DNA of 32,000 bases from Candidatus Saccharimonadota bacterium (GTDB lineage Bacteria > Patescibacteriota > Gracilibacteria > Absconditabacterales > Absconditicoccaceae): positions 1,110,001-1,142,000 of the forward strand of contig CP006913.1 of NCBI GenBank assembly GCA_000503875.1, written 5' to 3'. Below are positions 3,001 through 25,898 of this stretch, piece by piece. Numbering within the stretch: position 1 is the stretch's first letter; every line of letters begins with the position of its first letter. The notes under the pieces were generated by a model, which worked only from the letters and a program-made list of their open reading frames with translations, did no database searches and was not told the origin of the DNA. The position numbers and the translations under genes were made by a program.

Positions 3001-3595
3001 ATCAATCAGCATTTAATCTAACAAGTCACTTTGCAGGTTGTCCATTGTAAGAAGAAAATTGCCCACCAACCAAGATTTTTCCATCATTTTGAATTGATAT
3101 TTTTTTAACTGAACCATTGTATGAACTATTAAACCCACTTCCTATATCAAATGAAGCATCTTTAGATCAATTAGCATTTAATCTGATAAGATTGTTTGTA
3201 AGTTGTCCATTATAAGCCGTAAAGCTTCATCATACAATCATTTTTCCGTCATTTTGAAGCGCTATTGATTCTACTCAATATCAAGAATATTCATCCTGAA
3301 ACCCAGTTCATGTCAAAAAAGAAGCATCTCTAGATCCATCAACATTTAATCTAGTGATGTGATTTATTTCTTCTCAATTATAAAGATTAAAATTTCAAAC
3401 TATAACCATTTTCCCATCGTTTTGAACAGCGATAGATTTGACTCTATTAAAAAAACCACTTCCAATATTGAAGGAATCACCTACTTCTAACGCTCAAAAA
3501 GATTTATCTATACCAGCTTGCCAAGCATGTCAAAAACTGCCAAAAAGCAATACAAAAGACGCCATTATTCAAATGGTATAAAATAACTTTTTCAT
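17..3595 (-). CDS. Secreted giant repeat protein (1192 aa with TGA=Gly): signal peptide, ~14 tandem ~56-aa delta-60/DUF5122-type beta-propeller repeats, and a C-terminal non-repeat domain
   Basis: ATG at 3595 (MKKLFYTIGIMASFVLLFGSFGHAWQAG, signal-peptide-like). Hand translation of the minus strand with TGA=Gly runs without TAA/TAG to TAG at 17-19, and the length of 3579 nt is divisible by 3. Repeat consensus is RLNxDGSxDxSFDIGxGFNDGNGSAYxYTTxIQNDGKILVGGxFxSYNGQPANGLV. I counted ~77 in-frame TGA, which is why no minus-strand ORF of 60 aa or more appears across most of the gene in the track. Confidence 0.8.
168..204 (-). repeat. In-frame 15-bp microsatellite (about 2.5 copies of gttcaatttcaagaa) encoding (GTSGN)n in the C-terminal domain of the repeat protein
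   Basis: Direct reading gives gttcaatttcaagaa at 168-182 and 183-197, plus a partial copy at 198-204. On the coding strand this is tga act tct tga aat repeated. Confidence 0.7.
1010..3490 (-). repeat. Coding tandem repeat array with a 168-bp (56-codon) period, best conserved at 1100-2100 and interrupted by a Cys-containing insert at ~2640-2900
   Basis: Near-identical strings recur in register, for example aaatatcaaatgagttgtct at 1111 and 1447 (336 bp, or 2 x 168, apart). Many repeats share ccatcattttg and tcaatttcaatcat variants. Confidence 0.85.
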
Positions 3596-3630
3596 TTTTT
3601 TTGATGATAAAAAATAAATTTATTACATCA

Positions 3631-3659
3631 ATTGTATAGAAAAAAGTCTTTTTTGTCAA
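3631..3659 (-). promoter_or_regulatory. Putative sigma70-type promoter of the repeat-protein gene (TTGACA-N17-TACAAT on the minus strand)
   Basis: The reverse complement of 3654-3659 is TTGACA and of 3631-3636 is TACAAT, with a 17-nt spacer. It lies ~36 nt upstream of the ATG at 3595. Confidence 0.45.
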
Positions 3660-3745
3660 AAAAACAAATAGTTTTTTAATTATCTCTTTTTAAAAACTTA
3701 TTTAAAAACAATGCCAAGAAAACACTAGTCACCATCTAGTAAAAC

Positions 3746-4757: not shown

Positions 4758-5171
4758 ATGAAAGATAAAGATTTTGATGGTTGGAATAATGAAAAAAAGA
4801 AAATTGATAAAGATTTTTCAAAAAAACATCTATGGGTAAATAAAAGAGAGATTCGACTTTATTATGTATGAGTTAATATATGAAATGAAATAAGCAAAAA
4901 TTCGCCATATATAAGACCTTGTTTAATTATAAATAATTATTTTATAGGCGATTTAATCGTTATAATACCCATAACAACAAAATATAAGCAAAAATTTGAA
5001 AAGGTTTTTTATAAATTACCAATAAAATCTAATATATCTAGTTTTTTGATGCTCAATCAAATAACTGTTATTAGTAAAAAAAGATTGGTGAGAAAAATTT
5101 ACATAGAAAATAAAAAAATATCAACAATAATTTTTGAAGAAATTATAGATAAAATGAAAAATTTATTATAA
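4758..5171 (+). CDS. PemK/MazF-like toxin-fold protein, paralog 1 (137 aa), with no adjacent antitoxin ORF
   Basis: Translation with TGA=Gly gives FDGWNNEKKKID...REIRLYYVGVNIGNEISKNSPYIRPCLIIN...IVIIPITTK...MLNQITVISKKRL. This is the G-x-E...RP-x-hydrophobic...P-x-T...Q-x-R/T-x-x-KR pattern of PemK/MazF. It starts 10 nt after the radical SAM stop. Confidence 0.75.
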
Positions 5172-7390: not shown

Positions 7391-7670
7391 AAAAATCCAA
7401 AACTTCCCCAAAATCCCCATAAATGAACTCAAAATAATATATAAGTACTTGTTTATATCTTCACATTTTATCACAAAGAGCCTGACTTCCAACAGAAACA
7501 TTCTTAGAATTTTTCAATAGCCCTATTTTTCTCAAAAAATTTGCTATCACGAACAAACTCCAAGCTTTAGATAAGACATTACTCAAAACACTCTCCAAAT
7601 TCCAAGATATAGAAATATTGATGTCGATCTATATGAAAACAAAGATTTTTTAAATATCTTATTAGTTTAT

Positions 7671-8084
7671 ATGGAAAACACCTTTTCTTTATTTGATAGT
7701 TGGAACCAAGAAAAAAAGCATATTCACCAATATTGATCAACCTGAAGAATAAAAGATTTTTATATTAATCATAGAGAGGTTTGGTATGTTAAATTAGGTA
7801 TTAATGTTTGATATGAGCAAAATTGAAAAACTGAGTTTAAAAGAGCGGTTTTGATTATAAAAAAAATAGGTAACATTTTTCTTGTAATCCCAATGACAAC
7901 AAAAGAAAAAAACAATATTTATCACTATAAACTAATATCTTTTAAATGAAAGGTTTCTTGGTTAATACTTTCTCAGTTAAGAACTGTAGATAAGAAAAGA
8001 TTTATAGAAAAAATCTGAGAAATTAGTACAGAAGAACTTAAAATAATTAAAAAAAATCTGAGCAAATACTATTTCTCAGATTAA
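7671..8084 (+). CDS. PemK/MazF-like toxin-fold protein, paralog 2 (137 aa), solitary
   Basis: Contains FDSWNQEKKHI...REVWYVKLGINVGYEQNGKTEFKRAVLIIKKIGNIFLVIPMTTK...LSQLRTVDKKRFIEKIGEIS. It has 7 in-frame TGA and the same length as paralog 1. Confidence 0.8.
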
Positions 8085-13420: not shown

Positions 13421-13813
13421 ATGAACGATAAAAAGGAATTGTTTGATATTTGGGGCAAACAAAAATTTATTATAGACAAAGAGATTTCACCTGTTTTTTT
13501 TAAGGAAAGGGATATGTTTTTTATAAAAATGGGTCAAAATATAAGATTTGAACAAAATTGAAAATGATGGGAATTTGTTAGACCAGTAGTGATAATAAAA
13601 AAATTTAATAACGATGTATTTTGGTGAGTAGCATTATCAACAAAAATTAAAGACTGATTATATTATTATTGTTTTGATGCCAATTGAGCCAAACAATGTG
13701 CTATAATATCTCAATTTAGATTGTATGATAAAAATAGATTAATAAAAAAAATTGGTATGATACCTATAAAAGATTTTTTTCAATTAAAACAAAAAATCAA
13801 AAACCTTTTATAG
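13421..13813 (+). CDS. PemK/MazF-like toxin-fold protein, paralog 3 (130 aa), solitary
   Basis: Contains LFDIWGKQKFIID...RDMFFIKMGQNIRFEQNGKGWEFVRPVVIIKKFNNDVFWGVALSTK...ISQFRLYDKNRLIKKIG, with 6 in-frame TGA. Confidence 0.8.
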
Positions 13814-13868
13814 TTTCTGATTGTTTTATATCCCAACATAAGTTAGGACGATCCCGAAGGAATTTAGT
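13790..13868 (-). ncRNA. Predicted cis-antisense sRNA 3 (~78 nt) whose terminator hairpin covers the toxin stop codon
   Basis: On the minus strand there is a short UUCG-loop hairpin (13852-13861) and a 7-bp hairpin at 13831-13848 (TCCTAAC/GTTGGGA; one pair is G.U on minus but C.A on plus). The terminator is CAGAAAC/GTTTTTG (13798-13819) followed by ATTTTTTGTTTT. Confidence 0.5.
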
Positions 13869-13874
13869 GAAGTA

Positions 13875-13902
13875 ATTATAACAAAAACATTTCAAATTGC
13901 AA
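13875..13902 (-). promoter_or_regulatory. Antisense sigma70-type promoter TTGCAA-N16-(TGT)TATAAT facing PemK-like gene 3
   Basis: 13897-13902 is TTGCAA and the reverse complement of 13875-13880 is TATAAT, preceded by TGT (extended -10 like), with a 16-nt spacer. The 42-nt block 13865-13906 is 38/42 identical to 25014-25055. Confidence 0.55.
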
Positions 13903-14019
13903 ATCAAATTAACCACACCTCGGCGTGGTGCAAAGTCCTCCGCATAGTCGAGTTTTTTTGCTTGTTTTTTTTATAAAAATATCTACAAAAAGGAATCTTT
14001 TATATATTGTTTATCAATC

Positions 14020-23724: not shown

Positions 23725-24318
23725 ATGAAATTTTTAGGTAAAAAAAGGTGATTTACGCTTATTGAAATGCTTATAGTTATCGTAATTATCGGAGTTTTAG
23801 CATCAGCGTTGATACCAAGACTTGGATCAGCAAGAGGTAAAGCAAACGATGTAGCTCGTAAAGCCGATCTTCAACAAGTTGCTACCGCAATTATTTCTTA
23901 CCAAATTGATACAAATTATTTTCCAACATGAATAAAATCTTTCAGTGATACGGGATTTCAAGCAAATCTTGTAAAATGATGAATGGCAAGTATACCAGTA
24001 TGAGATACAACTACTAATTGGACATGATTAGATAACGTATCTACATGATGATATAGATATTATCCAATGAAGAAAAATGGATGAGCAAATAACTGATTCA
24101 TGCTTGCTTCTAGAGCAGAAACAGAAGGATGAGCAAATTTTGTTCATTGTTGATTAGCATCTGTAGTAACTCCAGATGGAACTATTGATGTGGATTCTAT
24201 TAAAATGCCATCAAAAATCGTTTTAGATACAGATGGTACATGTACTTGTAATGGATGAGCTGGTTGAGAAGCAACAGCTTGTGATAAAAATCAACTTTTG
24301 TATATCTACAAATACTAA
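23725..24318 (+). CDS. Type IV pilin / pseudopilin with a prepilin N-methylation motif
   Basis: MKFLGKKRGFTLIEMLIVIVIIGVLASALIP. The cleavage-site Gly is TGA at 23749-23751. The C-terminal part is Cys-containing. About 17 in-frame TGA. Confidence 0.85.
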
Positions 24319-24334
24319 AAATATATATTTTCTA

Positions 24335-24365
24335 AAAAACTCCGGTGAATGCCGGAGTTTTTTTT
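24335..24365 (+). terminator. Intrinsic terminator of the pilin gene
   Basis: CTCCGG-TGAATG-CCGGAG, flanked by A5 upstream and T8 downstream. Confidence 0.8.
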
Positions 24366-24394
24366 ATTTGTCCTAGTTTTGTCAGTTTTTTTCT
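24366..24394 (+). promoter_or_regulatory. Conserved TTTGTC-N5-TTTGTC box, copy b, overlapping a candidate promoter TTGTCA-N17-TGTAAT (24379-24407)
   Basis: ATTTGTCCTAGTTTTGTCAGTTTTTTTCT is 28/29 identical to 3746-3774. It lies 64 nt upstream of the PemK/MazF gene 4 ATG. Confidence 0.5.
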
Positions 24395-24457
24395 AGAAAT
24401 ATGTAATTATAATTCACCATAACATGGTAAATGTTATTTTATTTTGTAATTATAAAA

Positions 24458-24952
24458 ATGGAATTACTTATAAAAAGATTAATTAACAAGGTCAAAGAAA
24501 TTGCAAACGATATTACAATTCCAATTATATATCAGTTTTTGGATCGATTTAATCTTGTTTTATATCTTCATTTTGAGAAAAAGACACCAAATATTGTTTT
24601 TAAACAACGGGATATTTATGAAATAAATTTATGACAAAATGTTTGAAGTGAATTAAACAAGAAAAGACCATGTATTATTATTTCCAATCAATCTTTTAAT
24701 AAATGAAATACAGTAATAATATTACCATTAAAAGGGATAAGAGAAACTACAAGAATATGAATTATCACGATATCTATTGATTTTCTAAAATCTTGACTAA
24801 AAAAACCAACATATTGTTCTTGTTTTAATATTAGAGAAGTATCAAAAAAGAGGATCTGACAATATATTGGTACTATAACAAATGAAAATAGAAAAATCAT
24901 TAACAATAGTTTGTCTATAATATTTTGATTAAAAAAACAAGCCACCCCCTAG
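24458..24952 (+). CDS. PemK/MazF family toxin, paralog 4 (164 aa; canonical core with an N-terminal extension), solitary
   Basis: RDIYEINLGQNVGSELNKKRPCIIISNQSFNKGNTVIILPLKG...GLKKPTYCSCFNIREVSKKRIGQYIGTI. An alternative start at 24431 is possible. Stitched across 7 TGA to TAG at 24950-24952. Confidence 0.8.
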
Positions 24953-25017
24953 AGGATGACTTGCTTTTAAAGTGAATCTCCGATTGTTCGGAGTCAATAG
25001 CATAGGCTATTTATAGT
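24931..25017 (-). ncRNA. Predicted cis-antisense sRNA 4 (~87 nt) overlapping the last ~22 nt of the toxin CDS
   Basis: Minus-strand hairpins lie at 24997-25010 (ATAGC/GCTAT) and 24978-24993 (CTCCGA/TCGGAG). The terminator is at 24937-24964 (GCAAG-T-CATCC / GGGTG-G-CTTGT; two pairs are G.U on minus but A.C/C.A mismatches on plus), followed by a T-run (complement of 24931-24936). Confidence 0.55.
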
Positions 25018-25023
25018 GAAGTA

Positions 25024-25051
25024 ATTATAACAAAAATTTTCCCAATTGCAA
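25024..25051 (-). promoter_or_regulatory. Antisense sigma70-type promoter TTGCAA-N16-(TGT)TATAAT facing PemK/MazF gene 4
   Basis: 25046-25051 is TTGCAA and the reverse complement of 25024-25029 is TATAAT, with a 16-nt spacer. It sits in the 103-nt convergent gap between the toxin gene and rsmA, so it has no protein-coding target on the minus strand. Confidence 0.55.
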
Positions 25052-25055
25052 ATCA

Positions 25056-25898
25056 TTATCTCAAAATTTCTCAAACATCTCACCAACCAAGTTCTTCCAA
25101 TCTCTTTCCCCTCAATGTTTCAGGAATCAACCATTCTTTATTCTGTTTCTTTTTGAGCATTGTTGCGATAGCACCCAATGTCTTCCTCGAATACGGAGCA
25201 AAATCTTCTAGAAAGCTGAGAAATCTAGTGAAATCTATACTAAGCGGAACATCTTTTCTCTTTAGTTCTATCAATGCGCTAGTCACTTTTGGGGCAGGGG
25301 AAAATGCTTTGGCAGGGACAGTCTTGAGATAGATCACATCATACCCAAAATTCACTATCCACCATAGATATGATTTTTTCTGAACATCAGTACAGAGTTT
25401 ATCTGCTACTTCTTTCTGCACCATAAAGACACCTCCTACGTAGTCTTGTTTCCCTTCTCCAAAGAACTTTCTCAGAATCGGAGAAGTAATATAGTACGGC
25501 AAGTTTCCTACAACAAGGGTTTTGTTGGCTTCCTGTCATCTATTTTTAAGCTCTGCATCAACATCAACATCCAATACGTCAGCATGAATCACACGAACAT
25601 TTTCCAGTCATTCTACCTTCAATTTACCCTCAGCAATCAGATTATTATCTCTTTCAATAACAAAAAAATCTGGGCTTATTTCATGGATAAGTTTGGTTAA
25701 CGATCATTTTCCTGGTCCGATTTCGATCAGTACTGTACATCACGACTCATCATAGATCTTCTTGATTTTATCGCCAAGATAATGTCTGATTTTGGTATCG
25801 GTTAGGAAGTTTTGTCCTAGATATGTTCACACGGGTATGCTTATTATTGATAAATATGATTTCTTATACTTACTTGAGCTTGAAAATCAACTATTCAT
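25056..25898 (-). CDS. rsmA: 16S rRNA (adenine1518/1519-N6) dimethyltransferase KsgA/RsmA
   Basis: LGQNFL...VLIEIGPGKGSLT...VVGNLPYYITSPIL...PKVTSALIEL. The track ORF is extended through two TGA to TAA at 25056-25058. The start at 25898 is the first ATG after an in-frame TAG. Confidence 0.85.

Follow-up and report, generated by a model that had tools for sequence, protein, structure and literature searches.

A 32,000-nucleotide (nt) stretch of DNA, positions 1,110,001 to 1,142,000 of contig CP006913.1 (GenBank assembly GCA_000503875.1, Absconditabacterales; hereafter the window), was analysed around a gene of the MazF/PemK toxin family and a small RNA (sRNA) predicted from the opposite strand at the 3′ end of that gene. 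The gene, here called mazF, occupies 24458–24952 on the plus strand and encodes a protein of 164 aa under genetic code 25, with the stop codon TAG at 24950–24952. An alternative ATG lies at 24431; homologues favour the start at 24458. The predicted sRNA of ~88 nt would be read convergently, from the minus strand at 24931–25018, and its 3′ end lies within mazF.

The G+C content of the window is 33%, and the readable length of its open reading frames (ORFs) rises ~3-fold once TGA is read through. When the mazF product was aligned with solved MazF proteins, its in-frame TGA codons fell on the conserved Gly of the "GSE" motif, indicating that TGA is read as Gly (code 25).

The mazF product and the absence of an adjacent antitoxin gene

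The deduced protein shared 100% identity with P148_SR1C00001G1056, a hypothetical protein of candidate division SR1 bacterium RAAC1_SR1_1. It matched the whole Pfam profile PF02452 (PemK_toxin; positions 1–109 of 109, residues 49–156) with E = 2.6e-19 and 69.8 bits against a cut-off of 23.1, and this was the sole Pfam match above a curated cut-off (DUF5814 reached 14 bits against a cut-off of 25). Alignment with the MazF proteins of Staphylococcus aureus and Bacillus subtilis was end to end. An AlphaFold2 model built from a 40-sequence alignment (predicted local distance difference test score, pLDDT, 89) placed N-terminal helices at residues 2–15 and 21–40, followed by the SH3-like barrel of MazF. 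The best Foldseek matches of this model were MazF of S. aureus, B. subtilis and Mycobacterium tuberculosis (target-normalised template modelling (TM) scores 0.84–0.88, probability 1.00, ~115 residues), with TM 0.88 to S. aureus MazF 4mzp; the N-terminal two-helix extension of ~48 aa was covered by none of them.

An earlier note on this DNA, made from the letters alone, had described a full-length PemK/MazF core behind an N-terminal extension, and both were borne out. It had also called the protein a canonical, textbook MazF. The fold, the PF02452 match and the catalytic Arg, which is retained and invariant in the subfamily (R70), agree with that description, but the catalytic Thr position, taken up below, does not. 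By family and fold the product is assigned as a MazF/PemK-family endoribonuclease, and ribonuclease activity and toxicity are predicted from its sequence. Pfam and PADLOC showed that it is not a member of the ToxN/AbiQ, CptN or TenpN families. None of the PADLOC defence models matched at the locus, and NCBIfam gave only weak, sub-threshold matches to MazF/ChpB equivalogs.

MazF and PemK are textbook type II toxins, for which control by a protein antitoxin is the accepted view save in rare solitary cases. Here, the gaps flanking mazF (24364–24457, 94 nt; 24953–25055, 103 nt) held ORFs of at most 26 aa, none of them conserved, and the earlier statement that no antitoxin ORF lies between mazF and the terminator of the upstream pilin gene was confirmed. 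The genes beside mazF differed among related loci, without a conserved neighbouring protein gene. Thus, an adjacent co-transcribed antitoxin gene of the MazE/PemI/AbrB type or the ribbon-helix-helix type, as expected of a type II system, was absent from the locus. A small protein encoded in the gap was considered as another candidate: the minus strand contains a 24-aa ORF at 24929–25003, yet no ATG ORF was conserved across the RNAs of the 20 loci compared below, and the candidate was rejected.

A predicted small RNA opposite the 3′ end of mazF

A promoter-like sequence was found on the minus strand at 25024–25051, consisting of a −35 box TTGCAA (25051–25046), a 16-nt spacer and an extended −10 box TGtTATAAT (25032–25024; TATAAT at 25029–25024). 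It directly adjoins the stop codon (25056–25058) of the convergent gene rsmA. The earlier note had placed both hexamers correctly but had counted the TGT in addition to 16 spacer nucleotides; the spacer is 16 nt in total, TGT included. With the TG, the site scored 10/12 against the consensus, which placed it near the top of the promoter-like sites within the 6 kb scanned. Loose promoter-like sites were not enriched (27 found against 23 expected from shuffles), and a single such site proves nothing alone, because loose matches are equally frequent in shuffled sequence. Under the strict pattern TTGnnn-16/17-TATAAT, six sites were found on both strands of the window against 3.4 expected. Four of the six (5264, 8171, 13902 and 25051) lie within ~90 nt downstream of, and antisense to, the window's four PemK-like genes.

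The RNA predicted from the promoter opposite mazF would start at 25018, as placed from the −10 box to within ~2 nt, and end at a U-run at 24931. Its minimum free energy (MFE) was −32.9 kcal/mol (z = −6.5), against −20.4 kcal/mol for the plus strand. A 5′ leader, CACUAUA (25018–25012), is followed by a 5′ hairpin at 24996–25011 (6 bp, loop CUAU) and a second hairpin at 24978–24993 (6 bp, loop ACAA), the latter with direct repeats AUUGAC (24998–24993) and AUUCAC (24977–24972) on its flanks. Both hairpins lie where the earlier note had drawn them. A single-stranded linker, AUUCACUUU (24969–24977; family consensus AUUSACU), stands between the second hairpin and an intrinsic terminator at 24931–24968, which comprises a 16-bp stem (24933–24968), the loop UCUA and the U-run, and which is usable also by rsmA read-through.

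As had been claimed, the terminator covers the mazF stop codon: the TAG sits at the terminator loop and the last ~6 codons (not seven) lie in the 3′ arm, giving an overlap of 22 nt between the sRNA and the mazF coding sequence (CDS). The terminator alone folded with −19.9 kcal/mol on the minus strand against −6.6 kcal/mol on the plus strand. Four of its pairs, rather than the two counted before, are G·U on the minus strand and C·A mismatches on the plus strand.

No family of Rfam 15 matched the window or related loci at its gathering score, and the Rfam pemK motif gave no match in the window at 24300–25200 with E up to 10, nor in nine related loci with E up to 5. A known Rfam RNA family, the pemK motif included, was therefore ruled out both at gathering score and at these permissive E-values.

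The RNA unit accompanies mazF in varied contexts

Profile searches yielded ~35 clusters of this mazF subfamily at 90% identity; 30 representative clusters, among 1.84 billion, had E ≤ 1e-30. Its members are 155–187 aa long, all with the N-terminal extension, and all hosts are TGA-recoded low-GC contigs labelled Gracilibacteria or Absconditabacteria. A phage origin was rejected, as no relatives occurred in viral contigs. For comparison, a set of 20 distinct loci with 32–88% protein identity was used.

All 20 loci contained TTGnnn-16/17-TAnAAT opposite the 3′ end of mazF, the spacer being 16 nt long, or 17 nt in one locus. The spacer sequences were unrelated among the loci, while the hexamers and the spacing were kept. 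A common sRNA layout was likewise found in 20/20: a YACU leader, two short hairpins, a single-stranded linker of 8–11 nt and a terminator with a U-run, over a total length of 75–93 nt. At every locus the 3′ end of the sRNA overlapped the mazF CDS, by 2–54 nt. When the RNAs were folded singly, and so without any alignment, each gave a three-hairpin MFE structure, and the minus strand was the more stable one in 19 of the 20 loci (mean −28.2 against −21.4 kcal/mol). Among the loci examined, no intact mazF of this subfamily was found without the RNA unit.

A convergent neighbour was absent in at least 11 of 16 loci, and rsmA was downstream only in the window, L002 and L008. Co-directional next genes were atpA (L005), rfbC (L020/L021), a MetRS-like gene (L009/L010) and others (L001, L011, L012, L017, L019, L024 and L026); beside a co-directional gene, the minus strand holds nothing that a terminator could serve. 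The presence of the unit in such varied contexts, mostly without rsmA, indicates that it belongs to mazF and not to rsmA.

At L008 (2970–3500), a mazF 79% identical to that of the window is frameshifted after ...PNIVFK and has an in-frame TAG 14 codons before its end, while the sRNA and its promoter are intact (92–99 bits). This pseudogene may reflect genuine decay of the toxin or a misassembly of the metagenome-assembled genome. Retention of the RNA without an intact toxin, and of no intact toxin without the RNA, is the asymmetry predicted for an antitoxin, here in a small sample.

Covariation of the stems and the folded strand

The first covariance model (A2/R1), made from the seven closest sequences, recovered six distant relatives from outside the model exactly at the coordinates expected, with E-values between 5e-8 and 6e-4. 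A second model (A4/R2) added L019 and, with filters off, also L024, L010 and L025, each as the top match of its locus; L011/L012 (32–35% protein identity) have the same architecture and are too diverged to score. The sRNA of the window scored 93–101 bits with the covariance models, and in the 127 kb searched scores >35 bits were obtained only at mazF 3′ ends. A match of 34.7 bits at L005 11287–11373 was rejected as an ordinary bidirectional terminator after a cold-shock gene.

Compensatory double changes were found in 25 of 27 pairs in a 15-sequence alignment, in which 95.8% of cells were paired against 64% in shuffles and ~50% with slid partners; none of 500 shuffles reached the observed values. 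The A4 alignment gave double changes in 22 of 27 pairs, with 94.8% of cells paired. Compensatory changes affected 5/6 pairs of helix 1 (97.8% of cells paired) and 5/5 pairs of helix 2 (97.3%), and 15 of the 16 terminator pairs covaried. These alignments were fitted to the model and so lean toward structure; the alignment-free folds agree independently. Across the family, G·U cells outnumbered A·C cells 22 to 2, indicating that the minus strand is the folded strand.

The best conserved nucleotides are single-stranded

The best conserved nucleotides of the sRNA are single-stranded: YACUA at the 5′ end, UGAC in the stretch that separates the hairpins and AUUSACU ahead of the terminator. In a 12-sequence alignment the leader YACU was invariant and the linker AUUSACU near-invariant, while the stems and loops turned over freely. 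Each of the three hairpins has a UUSACU-like motif at its 5′ foot, with AUUSAC repeated directly on either side of hairpin 2, and the count of BACU, which sits at three fixed structural positions, was 53 where 19 were expected. These motifs lie mostly outside the mazF CDS, and coding constraint therefore does not explain their conservation. Depletion or enrichment of SACU/UUSACU in the mazF CDS was also tried as a clue to cleavage specificity and gave no signal.

The sRNA as a candidate antitoxin

The earlier note had proposed a gene for a regulatory RNA that runs antisense to the 3′ end of the toxin gene; the co-travel of the unit with mazF, the conserved promoter, the covarying stems and the G·U strand bias support this. 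We consider it very probable that the sRNA gene is genuine and has a functional link to mazF. The sRNA is probably the antitoxin of mazF, and we put at roughly one in two the chance that it is an antitoxin acting mainly in cis by antisense.

On the cis-antisense reading, the locus would be a two-gene module of a MazF-family endoribonuclease without a protein antitoxin and a convergent, structured sRNA of ~88 nt, made in excess from its own strong, near-consensus promoter of the sigma-70 type. Its complementarity to the mRNA of mazF at the 3′ end would be perfect, extending over at least the shared terminator hairpin and at most, should transcription of mazF pass the weak plus-strand hairpin, over all 88 nt. 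Pairing together with convergent transcription would leave less mazF mRNA for translation, the route being mRNA decay and/or transcriptional interference, much as in the type I systems of Firmicutes with 3′ overlap. This mode of action is favoured because the convergent geometry is strictly kept, the overlap between terminator and toxin 3′ end is obligatory, and the sRNA promoter looks strong while that of mazF looks weaker.

Several points weigh against it. Cis-antisense action alone would not call for conservation of the primary sequence, yet YACU, UGAC and AUUSACU are the best conserved parts of the RNA. Pairing of the par type with the 5′ untranslated region (UTR) or ribosome binding site (RBS) of mazF was tried and rejected, since the duplex energies were no better than those of shuffles (z −1.9 to +1.9); with no complementarity there (z about 0), a translation block as in par/Fst is unlikely. 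The terminator is bidirectional in several relatives, so the overlap between mRNA and sRNA could be the terminator hairpin only. An associated sRNA in a distant group of loci (L028–L034) cannot act as antisense, because it is on the same strand as the toxin. As to the toxin itself, the catalytic dyad of MazF, which we take to be Arg plus Thr/Ser (Arg25/Thr48 in B. subtilis numbering), has an invariant Lys at the Thr position in this subfamily (K92, motif PLK[GST]), and RNase activity is therefore not guaranteed. The promoter rules of Absconditabacteria were assumed to be sigma-70-like, and a protein antitoxin may be encoded in trans elsewhere in the genome.

The conserved single-stranded motifs would be accounted for if the sRNA antitoxin acted on the MazF protein in the manner of type III systems, an alternative we regard as possible but doubtful. 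The MazF dimer would bind, and perhaps slowly cleave, single-stranded UUSACU pseudo-substrates presented three times at hairpin 5′ feet, two of them flanking hairpin 2; the N-terminal helices could hold the hairpins, and the convergent overlap would be mere compact packaging. It is in keeping with such binding that the motifs outlast freely changing stems and loops, that BACU is in excess, that the motifs lie outside the CDS at most loci, and that the sRNA has no complementarity to the mazF 5′ UTR. MazF enzymes recognise short single-stranded RNA motifs, and the B. subtilis MazF–RNA complex 4mdx was among the top structural matches. Conservation of the N-terminal extension, with its FLxW helix, holds throughout the RNA-associated PemK clade and so also for group 2 with its co-directional RNA.

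Binding to protein, however, does not require the convergent 3′ overlap, which is kept in 20/20 loci and in the three other PemK paralogue families of the window. In contrast to ToxI/AntiQ/CptI, the RNA forms no tandem-repeat array and does not lie upstream of the toxin, and the toxin belongs to PF02452 and not to ToxN/AbiQ/CptN/TenpN. Conservation of the 5′ YACU may partly reflect start-site context, and the mazF CDS shows no depletion or enrichment of the motif. We give the antisense version a slight edge over the pseudo-substrate version; the two are not mutually exclusive. A hybrid class, joining the geometry of type I to the chemistry of type III, can be put forward tentatively, in which an RNA of ~85 nt replaces MazE, its two to three UUSACU pseudo-substrates inhibit the MazF dimer with the aid of the N-terminal extension, and the same RNA is also antisense to the toxin 3′ end. 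Such a class would be multi-copy in code-25 bacteria belonging to the candidate phyla radiation (CPR) and may reach as far as L028–L034.

It is rather unlikely that the sRNA is real but not an antitoxin, whether as cargo or a trans regulator, as a cassette-end promoter plus insulator, or as a stabiliser or activator of mazF, with MazF checked by the N-terminal extension that it carries or by the product of a gene at another site. A mobile, compact module with the −35 box at its very edge would suit such roles, as would the two-helix extension, which is predicted with high confidence. There are also precedents. The antisense RNA aMEF accompanies a complete E. coli mazEF and stimulates its expression independently of RNase III, from a poorly conserved promoter (PMC8749433), and a solitary MazF has MrpC, encoded at an unlinked site, as a protein surrogate antitoxin (PMC4803016). 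Unlike aMEF, the mazF sRNA has a strongly conserved promoter and fold, and there is no MazE at the locus. The one-to-one linkage and fixed geometry with the toxin are strict at all loci, the RNA is kept when the toxin decays (L008), an orphan RNA unit lacking a toxin is present in L002/L008, and no candidate trans target was identified; all of this argues for an antitoxin instead.

Very improbable is the view that the hairpin is only an rsmA terminator or a bidirectional mazF/rsmA terminator, with incidental small hairpins and hexamers that are AT-rich chance matches: rsmA has no other terminator in the window and its read-through would stop at 24931, the terminator is symmetric in some relatives, and loose promoter-like sites are about as common as in shuffles, but in at least 11/16 loci the unit stands behind mazF with a co-directional or a different gene next to it, the hexamers and their spacing are conserved in 20/20, both small hairpins covary, the covariance model matches mazF 3′ ends only, and four of the six strict promoters in the window face PemK genes. 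The earlier note had itself raised a purely bidirectional terminator, and the loci without a convergent gene, where the unit follows mazF all the same, contradict it.

Comparison with known toxin–antitoxin systems

Convergent type I pairs include par/Fst–RNA II of pAD1, txpA/RatA, bsrG/SR4 and bsrE/SR5 of B. subtilis, and SprA1/SprA1AS of S. aureus. The mazF module resembles them in its 3′-overlapping toxin and sRNA, (near-)shared terminator, strong sRNA promoter, lack of a protein antitoxin and small mobile cassette. By its sequence, it also has the cis-encoded sRNA that type I systems require, with promoter and terminator and complementary to the toxin mRNA. It differs from them in the toxin, a soluble MazF-fold protein of 164 aa and not one of the hydrophobic membrane peptides of ~30–60 aa found in these pairs (type I toxins being typically small, <60 aa, and hydrophobic). 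Unlike par, the mazF sRNA is without complementarity to the toxin 5′ region, and it has conserved single-stranded motifs for which cis-antisense action has no need.

SymE/SymR and RalR/RalA, type I systems with enzyme-like toxins, are precedents for the control of a nuclease-type toxin, and not of a membrane peptide, by an antisense sRNA. SymR reportedly overlaps the symE 5′ end and RBS, SymE is said to have the AbrB/MazE fold, and RalR is said to be a DNase; the present pair differs in having a MazF/PemK toxin and a three-hairpin RNA.

With the type II systems mazEF, pemIK and chpB, the module shares the toxin fold and most signature residues (GSE...RP; PF02452). It differs from mazEF in lacking a MazE/PemI gene, in the ~48-aa N-terminal extension and the Lys in place of Thr, and in being monocistronic with a convergent sRNA. 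The Rfam pemK RNA motif is a conserved structured RNA beside pemK-type genes, and the mazF sRNA has no detectable similarity to it. A "pemK RNA motif" is named as an Rfam family in 10.1101/2024.10.12.618037.

The type III systems ToxIN, AbiQ/AntiQ, CptIN and TenpIN combine an endoribonuclease of Kid/MazF-like fold, from sequence families other than that of the present toxin, with a structured RNA that neutralises it and carries repeated motifs for toxin recognition (PMC8860590, PMC12283969). The recurring units of UUSACU plus hairpin in the mazF sRNA call these to mind. Their antitoxins consist of tandem repeats of 34–45 nt upstream on the toxin strand, with a terminator between (PMC8860590, PMC12283969). 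In contrast, the mazF RNA is single-copy, convergent and downstream, only the short UUSACU motifs recur in it, and the toxin is of PF02452. In the full-text library searched, no MazF/PemK toxin with an RNA antitoxin and no such modules in CPR bacteria were described, which is not proof of novelty.

If the sRNA is the antitoxin, a MazF subfamily paired with RNA and lacking a protein antitoxin would blur the type I/II/III classes, and toxin folds could exchange the chemical nature of their antitoxin. Absconditabacteria and Gracilibacteria are, to our knowledge, uncultured, TGA-recoded episymbionts with reduced genomes, whose RNA regulation is almost unknown. The mazF sRNA would be among the first candidate sRNAs with strong comparative support in these lineages, and such pairing would explain the frequent "orphan" PemK genes in their genomes (four in this 32-kb window, each with an RNA). 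The covariance model for the mazF-associated sRNA is ready for use.

Flanking genes and the upstream region of mazF

The convergent neighbour rsmA/ksgA (25056–25898, minus strand; PF00398, E = 3e-40) encodes a 16S rRNA dimethyladenosine transferase and lies outside the module. Upstream of mazF is a type IV pilin-like gene (23725–24318, plus strand) with a strong terminator at 24334–24363 (13-bp stem and T-run), which forms the left limit of the module. The conserved left edge of the module, at 24366–24413 on the plus strand, contains a putative, weaker mazF promoter (TTGTCA at 24379–24384, a spacer of 17 nt, TGTAAT at 24402–24407). The consensus promoter scan did not call this site, and its promoter function is suggested by sequence alone. 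A block, TTTGTCCTAGTTTTGTCAGTTTTTTTCTA, upstream of mazF is kept in the window, L001, L002, L003 and L014.

The module as a compact cassette

The mazF–sRNA cassette is compact (~0.7 kb) with conserved edges, from TTTGTCCTAGTTTTGTCAG on the left to just past the −35 box on the right, and it occurs in many contexts, including atp and rfb operons. At L005 (7221–10134), it stands between a UMPH-1 gene and atpA of an ATP synthase cluster, in a co-directional operon. At L020 (1127–3156), it stands between rfbA and rfbC and starts 1 nt past the rfbA stop codon.

An insertion of ~110 nt was found between the mazF sRNA promoter and the rsmA stop codon at L002 (650–800) and L008 (~3565–3700). It is a toxin-less sRNA unit, with TTGCAA-16-TATAAT, a UCC-UUCG-GGA hairpin and a terminator, of the type at 13780–13901 of the window. 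Repeats resembling repetitive extragenic palindromic (REP) sequences, GTCATTGCGAGCG[A/T]CAGCGTGGCAATCC, adjoin the module at L001 (~1095–1125 and 1178–1208) and L002 (~995–1025), and GC-rich palindromic blocks of a similar kind were seen after the −35 box in L012 and at 13915–13950 of the window.

L012 and L013 are two identical mazF plus sRNA modules (32–35% identity), 6.8 kb apart on the Absconditabacteria contig JAQUVI010000001.1. In the promoter region of the sRNA, ATTATAACAAAAACATTCCAAATTGCAAATCAAAATAA, both are identical to L001 (950–1000)/L022 despite very different toxins and RNAs, suggesting recombination or a shared cassette end.

Other PemK-like genes in the window and a distant group

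Each of the four PemK-like genes of the window has a convergent hairpin/terminator unit that reaches the toxin stop codon. As transcripts, the three units other than the mazF sRNA would run at about 5229→5172, 8137→8070 and 13868→13780. The gene at 4758–5171 (plus strand; PF02452, E = 4e-8) faces a minus-strand unit at ~5264→5172, which contains TTGATT-16-TATAAT (5264–5237), a nested hairpin and a terminator GGCC-CAAAA-GGCC with U8 that abuts the TAA stop codon. The gene at ~7665–8084 (plus strand), assigned to the family by eye, has an FDSWNQEKK N-terminal motif and ...VIPMTTKEK...; its unit (8171→~8056) contains TTGTAA-16-TATAAT (8171–8144), two hairpins and a terminator ATCTGAG...CTCAGAT with U8 lying within the last ~10 codons of the gene.

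The gene at 13421–13813 (plus strand; PF02452, E = 2e-5) faces a minus-strand unit at 13902→~13780, whose promoter, TTGCAATTTGAAATGTTTTTGTTATAATTACTTCACTA, is nearly identical to that of the sRNA of the mazF at 24458–24952. This unit has the hairpins UCC-UUCG-GGA and UCCUAAC...GUUGGGA and a terminator in the end of the CDS, and folded with −24.8 kcal/mol on the minus strand against −12.2 kcal/mol on the plus strand.

The distant group L028–L034 uses the standard code, has 35–46% GC and encodes proteins of ~270 aa that resemble tandem MazF-like domains with a "YQFLxWK" helix. Its RNA, absent from Rfam apart from a sub-threshold match to RF02618 SSRC34_2 in L031 (30.8 bits, the gathering score being 48), is encoded downstream of the toxin gene and on its strand, behind TTGACA-17-TAnnAT, and is ~84 nt long (e.g. 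L028 2519–2660; L033 2456–2588). It comprises UAUGAUUAGAUC, a covarying hairpin (CGUGG/CCACG to CAUGG/CCAUG to CGUGA/UCACG), AGGAG and a long terminator.

At the position equivalent to residue 92 of the mazF product, relatives have AITG or PITS, and the other PemK paralogues of the window have ITT, MTT or LST.

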